Assembly: GCA_963696285.1 (NCBI GenBank)
Contig: CAVOJP010000004.1
Location: 305,578 to 369,577, forward strand
DNA from: an uncultured Acidobacteriaceae bacterium
GTDB lineage: Bacteria > Acidobacteriota > Terriglobia > Terriglobales > Acidobacteriaceae
Reading direction: 5' to 3'
DNA length: 64,000 nucleotides
Below the pieces are notes generated by a model, which was given only the letters and a program-made list of their open reading frames with translations, had not been told where the DNA came from and ran no database searches. Shown here in pieces: positions 27,796 through 39,655 of the stretch; the first letter of the stretch is position 1; the number at the start of each line of letters is the position of its first letter. A program made the position numbers and the translations under genes.

Positions 27796-28854
27796 CTAGA
27801 AGCCCACCATTACCGGTTCGGGTTCGAGACGGATGCCCCAGATTTCTTCCACGCGATGTTGAATCTGCTCTTTGAGAGCGATGATCTCCGCCGCGGTCGC
27901 TCCGCCCCGATTCACGATTGCCAATGCGTGTTTGCTTGAGATGGCGGCTCGGCCGTAACCATAACCCCTGGTGAATCCGGAACGCTCCACCAGCCACGCC
28001 GCGGAAACTTTTTTATGAGTTACCAGCGCGGGATAGCTGGGCACGGCTAACCCTCGTGCTGCCGCCCGCTGCTTTAAATCTTCATGCTGGCTTTCGGAGA
28101 GTACAGGATTTTTGAAGAACGAACCCGCACTCTGGCAATCTGCATCTCCGGCCACAATCAGCATTCCTTTTAAAGCACGGATATGCCGCACCGCTTCGCG
28201 CGTCTCGGCCAAATCGGGCGCTGTTTCTCGTCCGGCGAAGTGGCGCTGCAGGTCGGCATAGGCCAGACGCGGCTTGCCATTGGGCGTGAGCGCATAACTC
28301 ACACGCAGAACAATGAAGCGTCCGCTTTCAGTCGTATTGAAAATACTGGAGCGGTAGCCAAACCCGCAGGCTTCACCGCATAATTCCCGCACCTGGCCAT
28401 CTTTTAAATCGAGCACCTGCACCGACGCAATGGTCTCGGAGACTTCCTGCCCGTAGGCGCCAACATTCTGCACCGGCGTGCCGCCAACGCTGCCGGGAAT
28501 GCCGCTCAGGCACTCGACCCCAGCACAACGCGCCATCACCGAACGGGAAACGAACTTGTCCCAGGATTCGCCCGCACCGGCTTGGAAAATAACATTACCA
28601 TTTTCATCGTGCCCGGCACTCTGCTCGATGCCCTCGATAGCGATCTTGAGTACCAGGCCGGGCCAACCCGCATCCGCTAACTACCAGATTGCTGCCGCCG
28701 CCCAGAACGAACAAAGGCAGATCAAGTGCCGCGCAGAAAATACGGCTGCCTCCTGCGCCTCTCCAACATCTTTGGCTTCGACGAAATACCGCGCCGGACC
28801 TCCGACTCTAAGGGTGGTAAGCGGCGCCAGCGGAATATTTTCGAGTAGCTGCAC
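27796..28854 (-). pseudogene. murB: UDP-N-acetylmuramate dehydrogenase disrupted by two compensating frameshifts
   Basis: GTG 28854 opens VQLLENIPLAPLTTLRVGGPARYFVEAKD. The conserved LDLPLFVLGGGSNLVV is encoded in another frame (about 28726-28679). The original frame hits TAG at 28683-28681, then resumes as ADAGWPGLVLKIAIEG...GIPGSVGG through to 27796. Confidence 0.7.
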
Positions 28855-28944: not shown

Positions 28945-29910
28945 TCAGTTCGGCGGGTCTCCGCTGATGTTGTCAAGAAACGTTGACGAAGGCACAAAAT
29001 ATAAACTCCCACTAACCGGCTTGCTGAAATCGAGCAGACGGTCGTAATTGCCAGGGGGACGGCCCACGAACATGTTCTGAAGCATGGTTTCAGTGACGCG
29101 CGGAGTGCGGCTATAGCCGATGAAGTAGGTCCCGAACTCGCCGTGGCCTGGCCGCCCGAAAGGCATGTTGTCTCTCAGAATCTTAACTTCCTTTCCGTTT
29201 TCTTCGATCGAAGTGAGCGCATTGTGCGCGAAAGGCGGCTTCTCGGCGTCTTTCAGTTCGATGTCTGAGAGCTTCTTGCGGCCAATAATGCGCTCCTGCG
29301 TCTCAACCGGCAGGGCATTCCATCCCTTCATATCGTGAAGATACTTCTGGACGATGACGTAGCTGCCGCCTGCAAAGGCTGGATCTTCGTCACCGACAAT
29401 GGCAGCCTCGTGCGCTGCACCGCCTCGCGGATTTTCTGTCCCGTCGACGAACCCGATCACATCGCGATCATCGAAATAGCGAAAGCCATGAACCTCGTCG
29501 GCAACTGAAACTACATCGCCGATGTTATCCATAATCTGTGCGGCCAATTCAAAACACAGGTCGTGGCGTTTGGCTCGAATGTGAAAGAGGATGTCTCCAG
29601 GAGTGGAGACGGCGTGGCGGCCGTCTGAGCGAATCTCTCGAAACGGATGGAGTTCGGCGGGACGCGGTGATCCGAAGAGCTTGTCCCATGCCTCCGACCC
29701 GAATCCAACCACACATGTGAGACCGGCTTCCGCGTCCCGAAATTCAACTGCGCGCACCAGTCCTGAAAGGTCCGCGCAGAATGATCGTACCGACGCATAG
29801 TCTTCCCGCCCGGGGCGAATGCAGACGACTAGAAAAATCGCCGCGCGTGTGAGTGGGCCGACAACAGTCTGCGGAAGAACGACCTCGTTTAACTCCCTGG
29901 GCGTATCCAT
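28945..29910 (-). CDS. DyP-type peroxidase (YfeX-like, no signal peptide)
   Basis: 321 aa. GFVDGTENP hallmark motif. Confidence 0.9.
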   Translation of the reverse strand: MDTPRELNEVVLPQTVVGPLTRAAIFLVVCIRPGREDYASVRSFCADLSGLVRAVEFRDAEAGLTCVVGFGSEAWDKLFGSPRPAELHPFREIRSDGRHAVSTPGDILFHIRAKRHDLCFELAAQIMDNIGDVVSVADEVHGFRYFDDRDVIGFVDGTENPRGGAAHEAAIVGDEDPAFAGGSYVIVQKYLHDMKGWNALPVETQERIIGRKKLSDIELKDAEKPPFAHNALTSIEENGKEVKILRDNMPFGRPGHGEFGTYFIGYSRTPRVTETMLQNMFVGRPPGNYDRLLDFSKPVSGSLYFVPSSTFLDNISGDPPN

Positions 29911-30055: not shown

Positions 30056-31312
30056 TCAGCGCGTGGAATGTGTTCGAACCGCGATGAACGAGACTTGCTC
30101 CAGCCCGGGGAAGTGACCTTCTTGATCGGCTTCGCGTTTGGTGGGCGCGATTTGCTGAACGGTGGTTCGCGCCGGCAGCGTAGCGCCAAAATATTGCGCG
30201 TACACATCGTCAAAGGCTTGCAGGTCAGACAAATCGTCCAGGTAAACATTTGTGGCTACAACCTGATTGAAATTCATGTCGGCTTCTTCAAGGTTGTCGA
30301 GGAGATTGCGCATCGTCTGCCGCAGCTGATGTTGCGTTGTAGACGCATAAATGCCGCCGTGCGCACCTGGAATGAAGCCGTCTTTGGCGGAACAATATAA
30401 AGTGTCGCCGGCAAAAACACAAGGACTGGCCGTCGGACTTGGCGGCATGTTCTTGGGACGAACCGCTTTTCTCTGCCGGAGGTCGCGAACTGCCACGCCG
30501 GTGTACTCGATGTGAGCGCCGCCGGGCAAACTCGATACTTCAATTGTGGCGCGCGCAGGAGTATTGCCAAACTCAAAGCGCCGTGCGTAACGCTCATTCA
30601 TCACCCGCCCTGGGATATCCGAAGTCAGGTAAGGATTGACGAAAACCATGTTGCTCAGTTCGAGACCGGCTGCTTTCACGACTGCCTGAACGCGGTCAAG
30701 CGCTAAGTCGACTTGCGCTGCGGGATCGTCTGGAATTTTTCCGTTCACAGGATCGCTACCAGACATGCTCGATACGAAGAGCCGATCCTGAGTAAGAATG
30801 CCGGGCGAAGCCGAATCGCCTTGATTGTAGTTTGGCGGATAGACCGCCCGCCGATCAGTTAGGCTGCGCACGGCGACCGCGCTAATCTCAATGGGCGGAT
30901 CCGGAATGCGAGCAACGCCCAGCACGGCACGAGCCGGCGGAGTTTTTGCGAAGTACTCCCCAAACGCTCGATTCATTTCGCCATACTTGCTGACGTCCTC
31001 GAGATAAACCTGGGTGTAGACAACGTGCTCCATGGTCAAACCGGCAGACTCGACAATTGCTTTAACGTTATCGAGAGCCTGGCGGACTTGAGCATCAAAA
31101 GTCGTTGGTAAACTTCCGTCGGAACGGCGCGGTCCTTGACCCGAGATGTAAACGTAGTCTCCTGCGTCCACACCTGGCGAGTAGAAACGATTCACGCGAG
31201 CCGAAGTCGCCGCAGGAACGACGGCCCGAACCTGCCCCTCTGCTACGAGCGCTGGCGAAAGCATAAAAATAATCAATAGAAACCGCAATTGGACTATCTG
31301 ATTTCTTCGCAA
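30056..31312 (-). CDS. secreted protein made of three tandem RidA/YjgF-like domains
   Basis: Signal peptide. Three roughly 125-aa repeats, each with a YxSGQ-like segment (VYISGQGP / LFVSSMSGSDP / LYCSAKDG) and a PAR motif (PARAVLGV / PARATIEV / PARTTVQQ). Confidence 0.8.
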   Translation of the reverse strand: MRRNQIVQLRFLLIIFMLSPALVAEGQVRAVVPAATSARVNRFYSPGVDAGDYVYISGQGPRRSDGSLPTTFDAQVRQALDNVKAIVESAGLTMEHVVYTQVYLEDVSKYGEMNRAFGEYFAKTPPARAVLGVARIPDPPIEISAVAVRSLTDRRAVYPPNYNQGDSASPGILTQDRLFVSSMSGSDPVNGKIPDDPAAQVDLALDRVQAVVKAAGLELSNMVFVNPYLTSDIPGRVMNERYARRFEFGNTPARATIEVSSLPGGAHIEYTGVAVRDLRQRKAVRPKNMPPSPTASPCVFAGDTLYCSAKDGFIPGAHGGIYASTTQHQLRQTMRNLLDNLEEADMNFNQVVATNVYLDDLSDLQAFDDVYAQYFGATLPARTTVQQIAPTKREADQEGHFPGLEQVSFIAVRTHSTR

Positions 31313-31330
31313 GTAAATTTCCTTCCAGCT

Positions 31331-32614
31331 CTAAGCGGCAGATTTTTTCTGGGCCGCGCGCAGAACTGCGCGCAATCTTTGTCCCACAATGATTTCCTCA
31401 CCCGGCTTGATAGTCATCGAAATCAGTTCGATGTGGTCGGGTTCCTTGCGCTCTTTCCGGTTCGGGTTACCCTCGCGCACCGCTGTCACCAGGCTGGGAT
31501 TATCCGGTCCCAGCACTTCGATGACCGGATCACCCGCACGCAGTTCCTGAACGCAATCGATAATGCTGAATCCCCACGCATGCGTATCCCAGGAGACCCT
31601 GAGCGTTGGATAGCGGTTCCCATCGTCGGGAATATAGATGTCGGTTTTTACGCCGGGCACTGTGTCCACCAACTTCCGGATTCGATCCACCCGGCCATTC
31701 CATTCGGCGTAGAGTTTTTTCTCGTCCATCTTCAGCCAGGTCTCAAGCGATACAAGGCAACCAATAATTTCTTCTTTGCCAACTTTCATCGGACGGCAAA
31801 TGGCTCCCTCCCGCGGATTGCAATTCATGAGCGCGGATTCGATCAGGTCTTTTCGTCCCAGAAGCAAACCGCTGCACTGCGGCCCGGACAGCCCCTTTCC
31901 ACCCGAAAAGCAGTAAAGGTCGATGCCCATCTTCGCGTAAAGCTTGGCGTTGTCGGCGGGTGGTATGCCTGCGGCGTCATCCAGCAGGAGAGGAATTTTA
32001 TGGGCCTTCGCAATCGCGACTTCTTGCCGCAGTTTTTCACCCAGATCGGTGGTGTAGATCATCGCGGTATTTTCGTTGATCGCGTTGGCGAGTTCGTCGG
32101 AGGAATATACGAGAACCAGTTTGGCGCCGGTAAGCCGGATGGCACTATCGAAGGCGCTTCGGCCGCCCACCATGATCACTTCGTGCTTCAGCCCGGTGGT
32201 ATCGGGCAGTTGCCAAATATATTTATCGTCGCTGCCGGCCATGCATGCGGCGGTCGCCGCCGACATTGCGCCCGCTGAGCCTGAAGTGACGATGCCAGAT
32301 TCTGCTCCCGTCAATTCTGCCAAACGCCGCCCCACCCCACGCTGCAGATCGAACATGTTCACGAAGTAACGGGACGCTTCCAACTGCGCCTGCCGAACTT
32401 CGGGAAATTCAAGCGATCCACTCAGATAAGTCCAGGTCCCGCGGCAGTTGATGACTGTCTTTACTCCCAGCTGGGTATATACATTCTGCCGAGGATCCTT
32501 GCCCATGGCGGTGGCCGCTTGCGCGTAGAGTTCACGAGCGCCAATCTGGGTGAGCAGTGGCGCGGCCGCCAATAGCTTAACGAATGATCGCCGGCTGGAA
32601 TTCTGGATATGCAT
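31331..32614 (-). CDS. Tat-exported SelA/DgaE-like PLP-dependent enzyme
   Basis: Twin-arginine signal SRRSFVKLLAAAPLL. PLP-lysine region CFSGGKGLSGPQCSGLLLGRKDLI resembles SelA FSGDKLLGGPQAG. Confidence 0.75.
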   Translation of the reverse strand: MHIQNSSRRSFVKLLAAAPLLTQIGARELYAQAATAMGKDPRQNVYTQLGVKTVINCRGTWTYLSGSLEFPEVRQAQLEASRYFVNMFDLQRGVGRRLAELTGAESGIVTSGSAGAMSAATAACMAGSDDKYIWQLPDTTGLKHEVIMVGGRSAFDSAIRLTGAKLVLVYSSDELANAINENTAMIYTTDLGEKLRQEVAIAKAHKIPLLLDDAAGIPPADNAKLYAKMGIDLYCFSGGKGLSGPQCSGLLLGRKDLIESALMNCNPREGAICRPMKVGKEEIIGCLVSLETWLKMDEKKLYAEWNGRVDRIRKLVDTVPGVKTDIYIPDDGNRYPTLRVSWDTHAWGFSIIDCVQELRAGDPVIEVLGPDNPSLVTAVREGNPNRKERKEPDHIELISMTIKPGEEIIVGQRLRAVLRAAQKKSAA

Positions 32615-32705
32615 TAAGAAATCTCCTCATTAACCGTTTGCAAAAAATGCGCAGATGACTCCGCGCGAATATTCGTGATGTTGGAACAAGCTAAAAATTG
32701 GCAAT

Positions 32706-33584
32706 TTAATCCTCATCTTCGGGCAGCGGAATCTTCGACCGCACCGCCAGGATGAACGCCTTGGCTCCCGGTTTATTCTGGTTGTAGAACCCCACCGTGC
32801 AGTTGGGGCGAAAGTAGTACGCGTCTCCAGCTTTGGCTGGATAGCGCCCTGCAATGCCATCCATTCCACTACCAGCTACCATTTCGCCGTCCCCGTCAAG
32901 GACGAGATAAATTTCTTCCGCGGTTTCATGATGGTGCGGAAAATTTGTGCCGCCCGGCGCAAAGTTCATCCAGAAAAAACTGGTCACAACATACGCATCA
33001 TCGATGGCGTCGCGCTTGCCATTCCGTGGACCGAGGAGAAGCTTGTACAAAACCGATGTGGGATGACCTTCAACCGTCTCTTCCTTCACGTTATCAAGAT
33101 TCACAATCTTGGGCTGGGGCGATGGCGCGTTGATTGGAATTCTCGCAGGCACTTTGAAACTCATCACTAAAACTTGCGCCGGTTGATCGGAGCTATTCGC
33201 AATCGAGTGCTTCAGGCCCGGAGCCAGGTAGGTGAAATCATTCGGGCGCATCGCATACGTTTGATTGCCATAGTGGAGATCGGTTTTGCCTTGCAGAACG
33301 AAATAGATCTCTTCTACACGATCGTAGAGCACAGTCTGGCAACTCCCGTGGGCATCGAGCGTGACTTCAGCGAAACGGTCAACACTCTGCAATGTTCGAT
33401 CGTCCGCATCGCCTTTTCCGAAAATTGCTTTAAAGTGGCAAGTAGGGGATGCAAGATCAGCTCTTGTTTCGTTCAATTGCGGAACGTAACGATGCAACCA
33501 CGTAGGATCGATTTTCCGGTCGATTTTCCGGTCCTGGGCTAGCAAATTGAGCGAGAGCAACAGGAATACCAGCAGAGTCTTCAA
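32706..33584 (-). CDS. secreted bicupin protein
   Basis: Sec signal (LLLSLNLLAQD). C-terminal cupin metal motif FPHHHETAEEIYLVLDGDG. The N-terminal cupin half is degenerate. Confidence 0.75.
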   Translation of the reverse strand: MKTLLVFLLLSLNLLAQDRKIDRKIDPTWLHRYVPQLNETRADLASPTCHFKAIFGKGDADDRTLQSVDRFAEVTLDAHGSCQTVLYDRVEEIYFVLQGKTDLHYGNQTYAMRPNDFTYLAPGLKHSIANSSDQPAQVLVMSFKVPARIPINAPSPQPKIVNLDNVKEETVEGHPTSVLYKLLLGPRNGKRDAIDDAYVVTSFFWMNFAPGGTNFPHHHETAEEIYLVLDGDGEMVAGSGMDGIAGRYPAKAGDAYYFRPNCTVGFYNQNKPGAKAFILAVRSKIPLPEDED

Positions 33585-33766: not shown

Positions 33767-35170
33767 ATGACAACGCAATTCCCATTGGCGAGTCGTATGC
33801 GACGACGAGCGGTGGTTTTTCTCGCGGTCTCCTGCGGCTTGTCAGCGGCCGCTCAGACTGCGAGTCAAGCAACTTCCCCAGCCCCTGCGGGCTGCCGCGT
33901 CGAAGCCGTCGACTATAAGGGGTGGAGTGCAGAGCAAATTTCCAATCGCTGGATACAGTTGACCCTGGTGCCGCAAAATGGTGGCCGGTTAATGCAGGTG
34001 AATTTCGCGGGGCATCCCTTCCTGTTCGTAAATCCAAAACTTGCAGGGACGCACAAGCCGCCAACTCTGGGTCAGTGGTTCAACTACGGAGGCGACAAGC
34101 TGTGGCTCCTGCCCGAGGGGAATGACGACGAACAACATTGGGTAGGCGACTCCGATCTGTTGGACGACGGCCCTTTCGCGTTTCGAAAGCTTTCAGAAGG
34201 TCAGCAGTGCGAAATAGAACTTACCGGCCCGGCCGACCCTCAGACCGGGATCCAGTTTCTGCGCACAATTCACCTAGATGAGGACTCTCCGCGTATTCGC
34301 TTTCACGCGTCCATGAAGAATGTGAGCGGGCATACCGTGGAATGGTCGATGCAATCGGTTTCGCAGTACAGCACCGCCGATCCATCCTCGACCTCCGGCT
34401 TCAACCACGATTTCTGGACCTTCACTCCAGTGAACCCGTCCAGCAGTTATCTGAACCGCTATCATGTCCGCTTCGGTCCGGCGCAGAATTCCGCCGTGTC
34501 GGTGAGAAACGACGGATTCTTCGCGGTGCATTACGTGCACATGGCGGCTGAGTTGTGGTTGGACTCGACAGAAGGCTGGCTGGCAGTAGTCGATGGCGGC
34601 AGTAAGTATGCCATGGTGGAACGGTTTCAGTTCGACGAAAGCAAATCCTATCCCGGCAAGGCTTCTGTCATCTTCTGGACGAACGGACCGGAAATGCGGT
34701 TGAGTGCTGACGGAATTCCTTCCCTCAGCGACGACCCGGATGCATCCCCTTACTATCTTGAAGCGGAGCTTAACAGTCCGATGTGCCGTTTGCGGCCGGG
34801 AGACTCTTGTGATTTCGACACGGAATGGTTTCCGACGCGGGCCGGAAAAGAATTTCACGGAGTGAAAGACGCTGGCATCGTGATACGCCCGCTGCAAAGC
34901 GTTCATCTCGACAACGGGAAGATCCGGCTTTCCGGTTCGTTTGGAGTTTTCGCCGCCGGGCATCTCGTGGCTCACTTCTACGACGAACATGGTTCGAGTC
35001 TCGGAACTATGGCAATTGCGACCGTCACTCCCGCCGAACCGGTGCAGCTTGAGGCAGAAGTTGCCGCGCCTGGAAAACCCGCGCGAGTCTCCCTTCACCT
35101 GGAAGATGACCACGGGGTGGACTGGGGTTCGCTTCAGGAAATCCAAGTGAGTAGTGCCGACAATCGCTGA
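33767..35170 (+). CDS. secreted hypothetical protein (possibly DUF4380 / mutarotase-like)
   Basis: Signal peptide. GGRLMQVNF...WFNYGGDKLWLLPEG segment. The stop is followed after 1 nt by the next ATG. Confidence 0.6.
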   Translation: MTTQFPLASRMRRRAVVFLAVSCGLSAAAQTASQATSPAPAGCRVEAVDYKGWSAEQISNRWIQLTLVPQNGGRLMQVNFAGHPFLFVNPKLAGTHKPPTLGQWFNYGGDKLWLLPEGNDDEQHWVGDSDLLDDGPFAFRKLSEGQQCEIELTGPADPQTGIQFLRTIHLDEDSPRIRFHASMKNVSGHTVEWSMQSVSQYSTADPSSTSGFNHDFWTFTPVNPSSSYLNRYHVRFGPAQNSAVSVRNDGFFAVHYVHMAAELWLDSTEGWLAVVDGGSKYAMVERFQFDESKSYPGKASVIFWTNGPEMRLSADGIPSLSDDPDASPYYLEAELNSPMCRLRPGDSCDFDTEWFPTRAGKEFHGVKDAGIVIRPLQSVHLDNGKIRLSGSFGVFAAGHLVAHFYDEHGSSLGTMAIATVTPAEPVQLEAEVAAPGKPARVSLHLEDDHGVDWGSLQEIQVSSADNR

Positions 35171-35171
35171 C

Positions 35172-36815
35172 ATGAAACGGCCCGCGGGAGCGCTCATTCT
35201 CTTATTGCTGGCGGCGCTCTGTGCTGGAGTGCCTGCGGCCGGGCAGCAGCAGACGCAATCTCCTATCGCTGCTGTCGCGGATGTGAACGCGCAGGATCTT
35301 CTGGCGCGGCCGGTGGGAGCGAACTGGACCTCTTATAACGGCGATTACACCGGGCGCCGCTATAGCAATCTGCGTGAAATCAACGTTGCAAACGCGGCAC
35401 AACTTCGTGCAGCGTGGGTGTTTCATCCCGGCAACTCCCAGAATCTGGAGGTCACTCCTGTAGTGGCCGACGGAGTGATGTACATAACTTCGGCCAATGA
35501 TGTATTCGCCCTGGACGCGCGAACCGGACGGATGGTGTGGCACTACCAAAGGCCGCTGAGCTCGGGGCTGCTCGACGACGCTGCGGCTCACAAAAATCGC
35601 GGCGTGGCGCTGTGGCAGCATTTTGTTTACGTGGAAACCGACGATGCCCACTTGCTTTGTCTCGATGCCCGTTCCGGGGGGTTGCGATGGGATATTGAAT
35701 ATGCTGATAAAACCAAACACTACGGCGCGACCAGCGCCCCGCTCGTGGTGAAAGGAACAGTAATCGTTGGTACCTCTGGCGGTGACTCCGGGGTGCGAGG
35801 ATTTTTAGCTGCCTACGATGCTGAGACCGGAAAGCTGAAGTGGCGCTTCTGGACAATTCCCGGTCCCGGTGAATTCGGCTCCTCAAGTTGGCCCGGAGAC
35901 GCCTATCTCCACGGCGGCGGCACCACCTGGATGCCGGGCACCTATGATCCGGAACTCAACACTCTGTATTGGACAACCAGCAATCCTGCACCTGACTTTG
36001 TGGGAGATTCCCGCCCCGGCGATGACCTCTATACGGATTGCGTTCTTGCGCTCAATCCAGATACGGGCGAGTTGAAATGGTACTTCCAGTTCACACCTCA
36101 CGATCTCTTTGACTACGACGCGAATGAAACTCCTGTGCTGGCAGATGTAGAGCAGGGCGGCGGTACGGTCCAGCGATTGCTCATTCAGGCGAACCGCAAT
36201 GGCTTTTTCTATCTGCTCGACCGGGTCACCGGCAAATTCATCCAAGCCACTCCGTATGTGGAGAAATTGAATTGGGCCAAGGCCATCGATAAGTCCGGCC
36301 GGCCCGTTGTCTCTGGCCTAATCCCGACCGCGGAAGGCGCTCTTATCTGTCCTGGCATCAATGGAGCCACGAATTGGTTTTCGCCTTCTTACAATCCCGA
36401 GACGAAGTTGTTCTTTGTAATGGCTCTCGAAACTTGCAATCAATATTTCGCAAATCCGAAGCCGTTTGCACAAGGACAGACATACTACGGCACAGGCACG
36501 AAGCTTCCGCCCGATGAGCATGCGCAGAAAATTCTGCTGGCACTTTCCGTCGCGGATGGAAAGCCGGTGTGGCGTTATCCGCAAATAGGCCAGGGACGAT
36601 CGTGGGGTGGAACATTAATCACCGCCGGTGGATTGGTATTTTTTGGAGATGACAGCGGATCGCTTGAAGCAGTGGATGCCGCGACTGGGCGCGCTCTCTG
36701 GCATTTCAATACGGGCCAGGAAATGCGGGCTTCTCCGATGACCTATGCAGTGGACGGAGTTCAATACGTGGCAGTCGCAGCGGGCAGCGACATTTTTAGC
36801 TTCGTGCTGCCTTGA
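35172..36815 (+). CDS. PQQ-dependent dehydrogenase, methanol/ethanol family homologue
   Basis: Signal peptide. Propeller W-motifs. NRGVALW, GTSGGDSGVRGFLAAYD and HDLFDYDANE segments align to quinoprotein alcohol dehydrogenases. Confidence 0.85.
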   Translation: MKRPAGALILLLLAALCAGVPAAGQQQTQSPIAAVADVNAQDLLARPVGANWTSYNGDYTGRRYSNLREINVANAAQLRAAWVFHPGNSQNLEVTPVVADGVMYITSANDVFALDARTGRMVWHYQRPLSSGLLDDAAAHKNRGVALWQHFVYVETDDAHLLCLDARSGGLRWDIEYADKTKHYGATSAPLVVKGTVIVGTSGGDSGVRGFLAAYDAETGKLKWRFWTIPGPGEFGSSSWPGDAYLHGGGTTWMPGTYDPELNTLYWTTSNPAPDFVGDSRPGDDLYTDCVLALNPDTGELKWYFQFTPHDLFDYDANETPVLADVEQGGGTVQRLLIQANRNGFFYLLDRVTGKFIQATPYVEKLNWAKAIDKSGRPVVSGLIPTAEGALICPGINGATNWFSPSYNPETKLFFVMALETCNQYFANPKPFAQGQTYYGTGTKLPPDEHAQKILLALSVADGKPVWRYPQIGQGRSWGGTLITAGGLVFFGDDSGSLEAVDAATGRALWHFNTGQEMRASPMTYAVDGVQYVAVAAGSDIFSFVLP

Positions 36816-38096: not shown

Positions 38097-38885
38097 GTGA
38101 GCGATTCCGCTTGCATTCCAGGTGCTGCATCGGATCTCCCATCGACCGTCGCGACTACGATGGTGACTTCGCGCCACTCTGCGCTCGTCCGTGTGACTCA
38201 CTGGATTACCACCCTATGCTTCTTTGCCCTGCTCGTCAGCGGAGTTGAAATTGTAATTTCTCACCCGCGATTCTATTGGGGCGAGACGGGCAACGATTTG
38301 ACTACACCATTGTTTAAACTGCCGATCCCGGCCTCCAGAGCCTTGGTGCCCACCGGCTACGGATACGTGTTGCCCGACCAGAATGGCTGGAGCCGGTATC
38401 TCCACTTTCAAGCGGCATGGGTCGTGCTGTTGACCGGATTGTTGTATCTAATCTCCGGGTGGTTTACCGGGCACTTCGCGAAAACTTTGTTCCCGCAACG
38501 GACCGATCTTTCGTGGCGCGCGTTCTCGAGGGCAATCGCTGACCGTTTGCACTTCAAGCGGGCTGGTGAGGAGGAAGTCTGGTCCTATAACCTGCTGCAG
38601 CGGCTTACCTACTTGTTCGTAATCTTCGTTCTGTTTCCCTTGGTGATCTGGACGGGCCTGGCCATGTCTCCCGCGTTTGTTTCCGCGTTTCCGGCGGCCG
38701 TCAATCTGTTGGGTGGACAACAATCCGCGCGCACGCTTCACTTCTTCGTCTCGCTGGCGCTTGTAGTTTTTCTGCTGGTTCACATTATGATGGTTTGGCT
38801 TGCTGGATTTCGCAGCCGCGTACGAGCGATGATCTCTGGCCGAGTTGATACAGGCCGCGCTCGTACAGATATGGAGCGAAGATGA
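38097..38885 (+). CDS. membrane cytochrome b (b561 / Ni-Fe hydrogenase b-subunit-like)
   Basis: RVTHWITTLCFFALL His motif and four TM helices. GTG 38097 or ATG 38160 as start. Confidence 0.75.
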   Translation: MSDSACIPGAASDLPSTVATTMVTSRHSALVRVTHWITTLCFFALLVSGVEIVISHPRFYWGETGNDLTTPLFKLPIPASRALVPTGYGYVLPDQNGWSRYLHFQAAWVVLLTGLLYLISGWFTGHFAKTLFPQRTDLSWRAFSRAIADRLHFKRAGEEEVWSYNLLQRLTYLFVIFVLFPLVIWTGLAMSPAFVSAFPAAVNLLGGQQSARTLHFFVSLALVVFLLVHIMMVWLAGFRSRVRAMISGRVDTGRARTDMERR

Positions 38886-39655
38886 GTAAACCGTCAGCCG
38901 GAAAAATTTCACGCCGCAAACTGATCACGACCGGGCTGGCGGCCACGGCGGGGGTGTCGGCTTTGGGAGTGGCTGCCGGGTTGGCGCACAAGTATGGACT
39001 AATCCCGCCCGATCACGCCGGAATCTGGGGCCTTGGCGAAACGCTGACTTATGCTTCGCAACGCCTGCTGACGCGGCATTCGCTGGCGCGTGAGTTTTCC
39101 CGAAGCCAGATTTCGCAGCGTCCGTTTCCCAATGAACTGGCGCCGCTGGGTGATTCGTTCAAGCGCCTGCAGAGCGGAGGATTCGCCGACTGGCGACTGG
39201 TTATCGACGGCATGGTCGCGCGGCCTGCCTCGTTTTCGCTCGACCAGCTTAAAAGCTATCCTTCGCGCAGCCAGATCACGATGATCCAGTGCGAGGAGGG
39301 CTGGTCCTATATCGCTGAGTGGATCGGTGTGCCTCTTTCTCAGGTTCTGGAAGCGGTGGAAGTGCTGCCACACGCTCGGTACGTTGTTTACCGCTCGATC
39401 GAGCCCCAGTGGTGGGACAGCATCGACATGGGCGATGCGATACATCCCCAGACTTTTCTCACTTATGGAATGAATGGTAATGAACTGCCGGTGGGTAACG
39501 GCGGTCCGCTTCGTCTGCGAGTCGCTCGCCAACTCGGCTACAAGAATGTGAAATTCATCACCCATATGACCGTCACCGATAGCCTGAAAAGTTTTGGTAA
39601 GGGACTGGGCTCTGCCTCTCCAGAGTCAGGCTACGCCTGGTACGCCGGCATCTGA
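38882..39655 (+). CDS. Tat-exported molybdopterin oxidoreductase (sulfite-oxidase fold, YedY/MsrP-like)
   Basis: RRKLITTGLAATAG Tat signal. QCEEGWS Mo-ligand Cys region. GGPLRLRVARQLGYKNVKFI. ATGA overlap with the cytochrome b gene. Confidence 0.85.
   Translation: MSKPSAGKISRRKLITTGLAATAGVSALGVAAGLAHKYGLIPPDHAGIWGLGETLTYASQRLLTRHSLAREFSRSQISQRPFPNELAPLGDSFKRLQSGGFADWRLVIDGMVARPASFSLDQLKSYPSRSQITMIQCEEGWSYIAEWIGVPLSQVLEAVEVLPHARYVVYRSIEPQWWDSIDMGDAIHPQTFLTYGMNGNELPVGNGGPLRLRVARQLGYKNVKFITHMTVTDSLKSFGKGLGSASPESGYAWYAGI

Follow-up and report, generated by a model that had tools for sequence, protein, structure and literature searches.

Two neighbouring genes in the genome of an uncultured Acidobacteriaceae bacterium (GenBank assembly GCA_963696285.1, contig CAVOJP010000004.1) encode a pyridoxal 5'-phosphate (PLP) enzyme of the SelA/DgaE type with a predicted twin-arginine translocation (Tat) signal, and a protein of three tandem RidA domains (3xRidA) with a predicted Sec-type signal. 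This pair lies in a 64,000-nucleotide (nt) stretch of the contig, analysed as a whole and hereafter called the window. The pair is the robust unit of a conserved five-gene module, which also contains genes for a DUF4380-like protein and a pyrroloquinoline quinone (PQQ) dehydrogenase, together with a dispensable bicupin gene. We read the pair as a putative extracytoplasmic deaminating couple within a periplasmic oxidation module, an overall reading that the sequences favour, if with modest confidence. An original prediction, made from the letters of the window, had proposed that exported bicupin, PLP enzyme and RidA-type protein form a periplasmic deaminating pathway not known to be described. 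We found none in the literature searched, and the gene content and boundaries of the system turned out to be somewhat different from those first proposed.

Conservation of the gene pair and its module

How is the locus organized, and how far does its arrangement extend to other genomes? The bicupin, PLP-enzyme and 3xRidA genes are consecutive on the minus strand, with open reading frames (ORFs) exactly where the original prediction had placed them and gaps that it had also given correctly (91 nt between the bicupin and PLP genes, and 18 nt between the PLP and 3xRidA genes). It had overlooked the divergent DUF4380-like and PQQ genes as members of the module; the last 17 nt of the DUF4380-like gene are also the first 17 nt of the PQQ gene. 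To place this arrangement in a wider context, 80 loci were fetched from one-genome-per-species contigs via the PLP enzyme (using a seven-sequence alignment), and the proteins of the window were mapped onto them. As a reciprocal test, 80 metagenomic loci were fetched via a 3xRidA profile. The PLP gene was followed directly, on its own strand, by the 3xRidA gene in 31/31 loci with PLP-enzyme identity above 75%, 12/16 at 65–75%, 4/20 at 50–65%, and 0/7 below 50%. Conversely, a SelA-like gene was directly upstream of the 3xRidA gene in 48 of the 49 metagenomic loci with enough sequence, and the two genes overlap by 4 nt in several loci.

The DUF4380-like and PQQ genes travel with the pair. Among the closest genomic loci, the former is co-localized in 19/20 and the latter in 18/20, and a DUF4380-like gene is present in 31/32 loci of the reciprocal test. 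Both accompany the pair in divergent, downstream and interleaved orders; because they are kept through these rearrangements, function rather than accident is indicated. The arrangement is far above chance, recurring across 160 fetched loci from genomes and metagenomes. In one locus (L003, 99% identical and from a same-species metagenome-assembled genome), tblastn showed the PQQ, DUF4380-like, bicupin and aminotransferase genes split over several frames, probably reflecting indels of a long-read assembly rather than biology.

The triad of the original prediction is therefore conserved in part: the PLP-enzyme/3xRidA pair persists, while the bicupin is a frequent but dispensable companion. The bicupin gene was immediately upstream in just 17/29 genomic loci above 75% PLP-enzyme identity, 4/16 at 65–75%, and none at 50–65% or below 50%, and it was upstream in 28/41 loci of the reciprocal test. 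What kind of protein is it? The C-terminal cupin carries the motif G-x5-HxH-x4-E-x6-G, and H217/H218/H219/E223/E224 are invariant in orthologues. With an AF2 model of moderate quality (predicted local distance difference test score, pLDDT, 67.8), the top six Foldseek matches were ureidoglycine aminohydrolase (UGlyAH)-type bicupins, including 1sef (EF2996), 1sfn (DR1152), 1sq4, 1rc6 (AllE/YlbA) and 4e2q (At UGlyAH). Pirin, BacB and AerE scored nearly as well, and the fold search did not separate these from the UGlyAH type with confidence (TMq 0.56–0.68 and 13–18% identity for the UGlyAH-type neighbours). Searching the PDB with a bicupin profile gave generic cupin matches only, sequence similarity was likewise generic, and the ureidoglycine aminohydrolase equivalog TIGR03214 matched at 7.7e-9 (35.4 bits vs a cut-off of 200). 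The UGlyAH bicupins are the best structural neighbours of this model, and on our reading of the sequence the window protein has a canonical HxH...E metal-binding motif in its C-terminal barrel; UGlyAH releases ammonia from an alpha-amino acid derivative; unlike them, the window bicupin is only 13–18% identical, is predicted to be exported, and has no purine-catabolism neighbours.

Could the bicupin lie outside the pathway altogether, as an independently transcribed and often-adjacent gene, such that the "triad" would be a pair plus a neighbour? This is possible, although we lean against it. The gene is missing from ~30–40% of close loci, occupies another position or the opposite strand in five loci (L033, L055, L064, L067 and L073), and shows no specific functional homology. 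In addition, a terminator-like hairpin lies in the 91-nt gap and could fit the bicupin as a separate, optional transcription unit (i.e., as a terminator or attenuator); this is weak evidence, because a promoter/terminator scan of the window gave site counts not above those of shuffled sequence. On the other side, the bicupin gene, when present, is nearly always immediately upstream on the same strand and encodes an export signal, it follows the pair into the rearranged loci L055 and L073, and the nearest folds are ammonia-releasing or 2-oxo-acid-binding bicupins (UGlyAH, BacB and AerE).

Export signals and identity of the paired proteins

Are these proteins exported? We judged export from motif, composition, start-site evidence and conservation, aided by a simple hydrophobicity scan of N-termini. 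An early h-region and a net-positive n-region were found in all three minus-strand proteins and in both divergent neighbours, and the housekeeping proteins of the window had no such N-termini. The PLP enzyme begins with MHIQNSSRRSFVKLLAAAPLLTQIGARELYAQA followed by ATAMG, with cleavage predicted before A34 (a slash marks predicted cleavage below). Its signal combines SRRSFVK (SRRxFxK), a mildly hydrophobic h-region (LLAAAPLLTQIGA), a basic c-region (R27) and an AxA site (AQA/A). The other two signals are short, strongly hydrophobic and Sec-type: MRRNQIVQLRFLLIIFMLSPALVA/EG in 3xRidA and MKTLLVFLLLSLNLLA/QD in the bicupin, the latter with an h-region of KD10 = 2.83. The original prediction had assigned Sec signals to the bicupin and the RidA protein and a near-consensus Tat motif to the PLP enzyme; all three are canonical by motif and composition and are conserved in orthologues.

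In an alignment of 24 Tat-bearing PLP-enzyme homologues at 31–61% identity, R8 is invariant and R9 is present in at least 90%, and the RRxF motif recurs in 118 of the 120 best hits of a profile built from this alignment. An exhaustive search of 1.84 billion cluster representatives returned 4379 relatives of the PLP enzyme. Of the 113 full-length representatives among the top 150, 37 have an RR motif followed by a hydrophobic stretch, and 62 begin straight at the mature domain, M-x-I/V-Y-x-x-L-G-V, which corresponds to query residue 44. These cytoplasmic relatives therefore start 10 residues past the predicted cleavage site AQA33/A34. Comparison of 3xRidA and bicupin N-termini across 80 species-level genomes showed that the hydrophobic segment and an AQ/x-type site of 3xRidA are retained in ~55 orthologues, including Planctomycetota (Singulisphaera) and Pyrinomonadaceae, and that the signal design of the bicupin is retained in orthologues at 43–86% identity. 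Both proteins have an invariant pair of cysteines (C49/C82 in the bicupin and C298/C307 in 3xRidA) that fits an oxidizing compartment and may represent periplasmic disulfides or a functional site. The MsrP-like protein encoded in the window carries the twin-arginine motif SRRKLI and is a typical Tat substrate, which suggests a working Tat pathway. Its sequence places the PLP enzyme within a large clade of Tat-bearing proteins; neither of the problems that the original prediction had raised, clustering with cytoplasmic families or a mis-called N-terminus, was found. Export of the PLP-enzyme/3xRidA pair appears highly likely.

What kind of PLP enzyme is this? Matches to curated families place it in the neighbourhood of SelA and DgaE and below every cut-off: Pfam SelA at 1.4e-6 (28 bits), the NCBIfam DgaE-family subfamily TIGR01437 at 6e-45 (153.6 bits vs 385), the DgaE equivalog NF047797 at 1.5e-40 (139.3 bits vs 600), and the SelA equivalog TIGR00474 at 26.8 bits vs 267.9. 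Its best PDB relatives, over residues 43–365, are 8t7j, a "putative selenocysteine synthase" for which we found no paper (3.6e-34), and DgaE 7lc0 (1.7e-32), whereas true SelA structures match at ~1e-5 only, over core residues 95–325. The predicted Schiff-base lysine K240 and D212 are invariant in both the 24-sequence alignment and the seven-sequence alignment of PLP-enzyme homologues.

DgaE eliminates the 3-hydroxyl of D-glucosaminate-6-phosphate, and its strictly conserved His163 protonates the enamine on the enzyme at C-3; an H163A mutant releases free enamine, and Arg301, Arg332 and Arg346 are the proposed 6-phosphate binders (PMC9529869). We compared these residues in a MAFFT alignment of a DgaE sequence reconstructed from the PDB match with 20 Tat-clade sequences. 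The His162/His163 segment is missing from the window enzyme and from 20/20 of the Tat-clade sequences, and Thr337 stands opposite Arg301 (the clade mostly has His, Thr or Pro here); Arg332 and Arg346 fall outside the reconstructed sequence. Because the His pair is missing and Arg301 is replaced, the enzyme is best described, by sequence, as a member of the SelA/DgaE superfamily that is not DgaE, and a phosphorylated substrate is not expected. Neither the annotated ORFs of the window (17257–42361) nor the conserved neighbour clusters contained genes for a phosphotransferase system (PTS) or a DgaF-like protein, which, together with the predicted periplasmic location, makes a phosphorylated substrate implausible. 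Of the original label "SelA/DgaE-like", the superfamily assignment stands on the two PDB matches, and membership in DgaE itself does not. Bona fide SelA membership was rejected along with it, on the curated cut-offs, the missing residues and the export signal; the enzyme shares the core fold of SelA, but an exported protein cannot meet Ser-tRNA(Sec).

We also considered whether absence of the DgaE His pair means that a RidA is needed. This is no general rule, because RidA-less Tat-SelA-like paralogues also lack the pair, as do cytoplasmic relatives; we keep it as a suggestion. A natural fusion of a SelA-like protein with a C-terminal RidA domain (P0241, 620 aa, no signal peptide) offers Rosetta-stone support for a functional link between the two families.

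The partner protein is a clear RidA family member, with matches to Pfam Ribonuc_L-PSP (PF01042; 3.5e-60, 201.8 bits, in three stretches) and to the NCBIfam "Rid family detoxifying hydrolase" TIGR00004 (195.1 bits vs a cut-off of 106.25). The "RidA-type" assignment of the original prediction thus holds for the family but not for a single RidA, since three domains lie in tandem. Active-site equivalents were assigned against what we take to be the E. coli RidA reference sequence, in which the positions of R105, Y17, E120 and C107 checked out. The linker RPKNMPPSPTASPCVFAG...C between domains 2 and 3 is invariant, as are C298/C307, at 55–85% identity. RidA proteins are homotrimers with active sites at the subunit interfaces, and three tandem domains would, by analogy, give a covalent pseudo-trimer. 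Single-domain RidA paralogues with twin-arginine motifs (e.g., MISSTRRNFASRIASLF) adjoin further Tat-SelA-like paralogues. Such single RidAs could leave the cytoplasm as assembled trimers, and the fusion may be a way of passing a "trimer" through Sec.

A putative deaminating couple, its substrate and the alternatives

What might an exported PLP enzyme and an exported RidA do together? In the mechanism we propose, the SelA/DgaE-like enzyme would load PLP and fold in the cytoplasm before export through Tat, as its motif implies. In the periplasm it would form an external aldimine with a 2-amino-3-hydroxy acid, abstract the alpha-proton and expel the 3-hydroxyl (alpha,beta-elimination), releasing an enamine/imine; this step is proposed because of homology to DgaE and SelA, the only characterized relatives, which both eliminate a beta-hydroxyl via aminoacrylate-type intermediates (PMC9529869). 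The single-chain 3xRidA, with three Arg-containing sites in one pseudo-trimer, would then convert the enamine/imine to a 2-oxo acid and ammonium, as its Arg105-type domains and obligate adjacency suggest. Such coupling of a lyase to an imine deaminase seems fairly likely: the logic of the original prediction is coherent and has a precedent in the Ong pathway (see below), and it is drawn from sequence and synteny.

Which substrate would such a couple act on? The likeliest would be a 2-amino-2-deoxy-aldonate, for example D-glucosaminate, which the DUF4380-like protein and the PQQ dehydrogenase would produce from an amino sugar within the periplasm. Related loci would add a cytochrome c, a lactonase and a deacetylating amidohydrolase where needed, and the product, a 2-keto-3-deoxy-aldonate, would be split by an exported RraA-like aldolase or taken up through major facilitator superfamily (MFS) or GntP transporters, all encoded in related loci. 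The bicupin would be an optional accessory, possibly acting on a metal-bound 2-oxo or imino acid. We put forward an amino-aldonate as the substrate tentatively, on the strength of synteny, as a plausible candidate that falls somewhat short of probable.

The synteny in question comes from clustering all ORFs of the 80 genomic loci and scanning the representatives against Pfam. Recurrent neighbours included a TonB-dependent-type outer-membrane protein (26 loci), cytochrome c (22), an SMP-30/gluconolactonase-like (SGL) protein (14), a tetratricopeptide repeat (TPR) protein (11), a CBM9-like protein (11), an RraA-like class II aldolase with an N-terminal signal (8), an MFS transporter (7) and an amidohydrolase (5). 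The RraA-like proteins, of the class II pyruvate-aldolase family, have an unusual predicted location, and their chemistry fits the cleavage of a 4-hydroxy-2-oxo acid, for instance 2-keto-3-deoxygluconate (KDG). One locus from an unrelated 5.8-Mb genome (L083, 3497–11744) strings together genes for LacI, an amidohydrolase, a PQQ enzyme–cytochrome c fusion, a RidA (Tat), a SelA-like protein (Tat), a TIM-barrel AP_endonuc_2 protein, a BNR protein and a GntP permease; its PQQ enzyme is of the soluble-glucose-dehydrogenase (sGDH/GSDH) type, and every enzyme has a signal or lipoprotein-like N-terminus. In another locus (L086), a PIG-L-type deacetylase lies directly upstream. This component list suggests a route from aldose to lactone, ring opening, de-N-acetylation where needed, deamination, and then cleavage or import of a 2-keto-3-deoxy acid, and by analogy it would match the cytoplasmic Ong pathway step for step.

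The two other module proteins are less easily placed. The DUF4380-like protein has a signal-like N-terminus; Pfam DUF4380 was matched in 10/10 orthologues, always below the gathering score, and the NCBIfam TTE1925 mutarotase family was matched at E = 7.8e-10. An orthologue profile found no PDB relative, and a single-sequence AlphaFold model (pLDDT 40) was left unused. The PQQ dehydrogenase exceeds the cut-off of NCBIfam PQQ_enz_alc_DH (502 bits vs 480) and falls below that of the "acido-empty-quinoprotein group A" (546 bits vs 650). Its best PDB match is the PedH-like 6zcv (7e-102), with DYD aligned to a DFD that holds the additional Asp typical of lanthanide-dependent enzymes; where alcohol/methanol dehydrogenases have a vicinal Cys-Cys, this protein has Ala-Ala.

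Several points weigh against the reading of an exported deaminating couple in a periplasmic oxidation module. Identity to DgaE is ~30%, and reaction specificity within PLP fold type I is not safely transferable. The mutarotase-like assignment of the DUF4380-like protein rests on the sub-threshold matches, and the PQQ enzyme is of the alcohol-dehydrogenase type, lacks the vicinal Cys pair and resembles the "acido-empty-quinoprotein" family. Genes for cytochrome c, lactonase, RraA-like aldolase, MFS and TonB-type proteins were sought in the window and none were found. Many Tat-SelA-like paralogues have no RidA neighbour and equally lack the His pair. Finally, it is not obvious what an imine deaminase would bring to a periplasm that holds few PLP enzymes in need of protection. 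The most extended version—a full periplasmic pathway of amino-sugar oxidation and deamination in soil Acidobacteria, some Planctomycetota and others—is rather unlikely as a whole. In this version, amino sugars taken up through a TonB-type outer-membrane protein would meet a quinoprotein working with cytochrome c, then a lactonase (and, if required, a deacetylase) and the Tat-exported PLP ammonia-lyase; the exported RidA would come next, and an exported aldolase, or else an importer of sugar acids, would end the route.

Could the same exported couple act on amino acids rather than sugar acids? Free beta-substituted amino acids (L-/D-Ser, Thr, Cys, cystine or similar) would yield pyruvate or 2-oxobutyrate and ammonium (plus H2S) and would serve the scavenging of N or S outside the cell, the PQQ and DUF4380 genes being merely co-located. 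SelA dehydrates a seryl moiety, and RidA classically partners Ser/Thr dehydratases and C-S lyases (PMC4433059; PMC9529869); OngC, too, deaminates D-Ser and D-Thr (PMC9537276). Some paralogue loci hold peptidases rather than sugar enzymes (Peptidase_S15 in L085 and Peptidase_M3 in L084), and the window has no lactonase or aldolase gene. However, co-localization of the DUF4380-like and PQQ genes survives rearrangement of gene order, and a lactonase, an amidohydrolase, GntP/MFS transporters and a CBM9-like protein recur in related loci. On this evidence we consider an amino-acid substrate unlikely.

Less probable still, and in our view improbable, is a PLP reaction without elimination (transamination, racemization/epimerization, retro-aldol cleavage or decarboxylation), with 3xRidA serving another purpose, such as hydrolysing an imine from an oxidoreductase or binding a metabolite. 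The score of the PLP enzyme below every curated family cut-off, the loss of the DgaE His pair and Arg301, the many Tat-SelA-like paralogues without a RidA neighbour and the diverse activities of the Rid family (PMC4433059) would all allow it. Yet Arg105-type RidA domains define the enamine/imine-deaminase class (PMC4433059), and the tight pairing, the 4-nt overlaps and the P0241 fusion are what is expected of a producer and a consumer of an unstable intermediate; a periplasmic transaminase would, moreover, presumably have no pool of amino donors and acceptors.

That the proteins are cytoplasmic, with mis-called starts or membrane anchors at their N-termini and an ordinary DgaE-like pathway, is very improbable: two of the three genes have TTG start codons, and an internal Met37, the sole alternative start that would delete the Tat signal, sits just ahead of the mature domain of the PLP enzyme, but a GAGGAG Shine-Dalgarno sequence lies 8 nt upstream of the PLP-gene ATG and none is evident before Met37, Met37 is unconserved whereas RRxFxK is conserved down to 31% identity, orthologues starting at ATG encode the same signals, independent public gene calls share the starts of all three (427, 418 and 292 aa), and the cluster has no PTS, kinase or phosphate-binding Arg301. 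A start at Met37 was rejected on these grounds.

Relation to known systems and neighbouring genes

How does the proposed exported couple compare with systems already described? A PLP dehydratase or ammonia-lyase working with a RidA is a known type of system, and so is the 3x-RidA architecture. DgaE is the closest characterized relative of the PLP enzyme over ~320 residues, with the same fold-type I SelA-like scaffold and conserved PLP Lys/Asp, and the reaction expected here would likewise be beta-hydroxyl elimination from a 2-amino sugar acid to an enamine/imine and then a 2-keto-3-deoxy acid. Unlike the window enzyme with its Tat signal, DgaE is cytoplasmic and is encoded in an operon with a mannose-type PTS (DgaABCD) and an aldolase, DgaF, of the 2-keto-3-deoxy-6-phosphogluconate (KDPG) type. 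DgaE itself avoids enamine release (PMC9529869), whereas the window enzyme has a dedicated RidA.

The Ong pathway of Pseudoalteromonas, which acts on oxidized chitin, comprises the amidohydrolase OngB, the PLP deaminase OngC and the RidA OngD; it converts N-acetylglucosaminic acid (GlcNAc1A) to KDG and ammonium, and OngD is essential in vivo (PMC9537276). Like the system proposed here, it deaminates an amino-aldonate (glucosaminic acid, GlcN1A) with a PLP enzyme encoded beside a RidA, and its cluster holds a deacetylating amidohydrolase and a sugar-acid transporter, components also present in L083 and other related loci. In contrast, OngB, OngC and OngD are cytoplasmic and OngC is of fold-type III, while the window enzyme is of the fold-type I SelA-like kind and all parts carry export signals; the aldonate comes from a lytic polysaccharide monooxygenase there and would come from a periplasmic quinoprotein here.

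Niehaus et al. (2015) named the "3x-RidA" triple fusion and read it as a covalent trimer, e.g., EF_0115 (PMC4433059). The window protein fits that paradigm of Arg105-type domains hydrolysing enamines/imines from PLP dehydratases (PMC4433059). It differs in its Sec signal, its obligate PLP partner bearing a Tat signal, and its Tat-bearing single-domain paralogues; that Rid survey mentions signal peptides and the periplasm 0 times. The only periplasmic PLP enzymes that surfaced in the literature searched were broad-spectrum amino-acid racemases (BsrV/Alr type), which work outside the cytoplasm (PMC7890096) and, unlike the enzyme described here, are of fold-type III, with no elimination chemistry and no RidA partner. 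The literature searched contained no exported RidA, no Tat-exported PLP enzyme and no description of the gene module, and RidA, cupin and PLP go unmentioned in a paper on the lanthanide quinoproteins of Acidobacteria. The BsrV/Alr-type racemases leave the cytoplasm by Sec-type export, and the role ascribed to RidA proteins is to protect PLP enzymes of the cytoplasm or of organelles from enamines of the 2-aminoacrylate type.

What would follow if these proposals are correct? The full periplasmic pathway, if real, would bring the first family of Tat-exported PLP enzymes and the first RidA proteins at work outside the cytoplasm, and sugars derived from chitin or peptidoglycan would lose their ammonium before anything enters the cell. 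From a dedicated RidA with a signal peptide it would follow that hydrolysing imines is also a genuine, required catalytic step in extracytoplasmic catabolism. PLP would join the cofactors that justify Tat export. The question of where a PLP enzyme of the periplasm gets its cofactor would be answered as well. As the genes are abundant in peat and soil Acidobacteria, periplasmic deamination of amino sugars would be a direct microbial route of organic-N mineralization. The family is sizeable, with the Tat clade making up 37/113 of the nearest full-length representatives plus thousands of metagenomic sequences. The proposal further supplies a function open to testing for three large families now labelled "hypothetical": the Tat-SelA-like proteins, the exported 3xRidA proteins, and the DUF4380-like proteins with a quinoprotein neighbour.

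Table 1. Positions of the module genes, their signals, domains and sites in the window, and of selected proteins in related loci (L numbers)
Feature	Position	Strand	Details
3xRidA gene	30056..31312	(-)	418 aa; signal peptide and three tandem RidA domains
RidA domain 3	30059..30472	(-)	residues ~281-418; equivalents of E. coli RidA Arg105 and Glu120; includes linker RPKNMPPSPTASPCVFAG...C
RidA domain 2	30473..30856	(-)	residues ~153-280; Arg105 and Glu120 equivalents present
RidA domain 1	30857..31237	(-)	residues ~26-152; Tyr17, Arg105 and Glu120 equivalents present
Sec-type signal peptide of 3xRidA (predicted)	31241..31312	(-)	residues 1-24, ...SPALVA/EG; predicted mature start E25
SelA/DgaE-like fold-type I PLP enzyme gene	31331..32614	(-)	427 aa
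Codon of Lys240, predicted PLP Schiff-base lysine	31895..31897	(-)	FSGGK; aligned to the DgaE SGAK lysine
Tat signal peptide of PLP enzyme (predicted)	32516..32614	(-)	residues 1-33, SRRSFVK ... AQA33/A34
Terminator-like hairpin	32649..32666	(-)	GC-rich, then ATTTTTT; inside the 91-nt bicupin-PLP gap
Bicupin gene	32706..33584	(-)	292 aa; Pfam Cupin_2 7e-22 (two stretches), Cupin_1 1e-10
Sec-type signal peptide of bicupin (predicted)	33537..33584	(-)	residues 1-16; predicted mature start Q17
DUF4380-like gene, divergent	33767..35170	(+)	product predicted to be exported; conserved-module member
PQQ-type (PedH/ExaF-like) dehydrogenase gene	35154..36815	(+)	product predicted to be exported; conserved-module member
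Tat-motif single-domain RidAs	L027 12215-12718; L028 13110-13610; L034 10537-11043; L061 12314-12817		
Tat-motif single-domain RidAs, further	L083 6524-6997; L085 528-1016; L001 822-1334		
RraA-like proteins with N-terminal signal/anchor	L007 41-829; L013 34-819; L041 2615-3379; L001 1420-2199		

The module is flanked by genes unrelated to it. On one side these encode a DyP peroxidase, a truncated-looking MurB, an HTH-TPR regulator, trigger factor, ClpP, ClpX and Lon; on the other, beyond the two divergent genes, they encode a class I/II aminotransferase, an MsrQ/MsrP-like pair and an FAD oxidoreductase. The DyP-type peroxidase (28945–29910, minus strand), which has no signal peptide, lies on the same strand 145 nt downstream of the 3xRidA gene; this adjacency recurs in just one other fetched locus (L006), and the peroxidase is probably outside the module. 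The MurB-like ORF (27796–28539, minus strand) begins within its FAD_binding_4 domain and covers profile positions 87–137 only, which hints at a pseudogene, or at a frameshift or sequencing error upstream. The MsrQ/MsrP-like pair (38097–39655, plus strand) consists of a cytochrome b561 (MsrQ-like) and a molybdopterin oxidoreductase (MsrP/YedY-like). In NCBI, identical or near-identical proteins carry the name Candidatus Sulfotelmatobacter, and the module proteins appear in databases as "hypothetical", "aminotransferase class V-fold PLP-dependent enzyme", "L-seryl-tRNA selenium transferase" and "cupin domain-containing protein".

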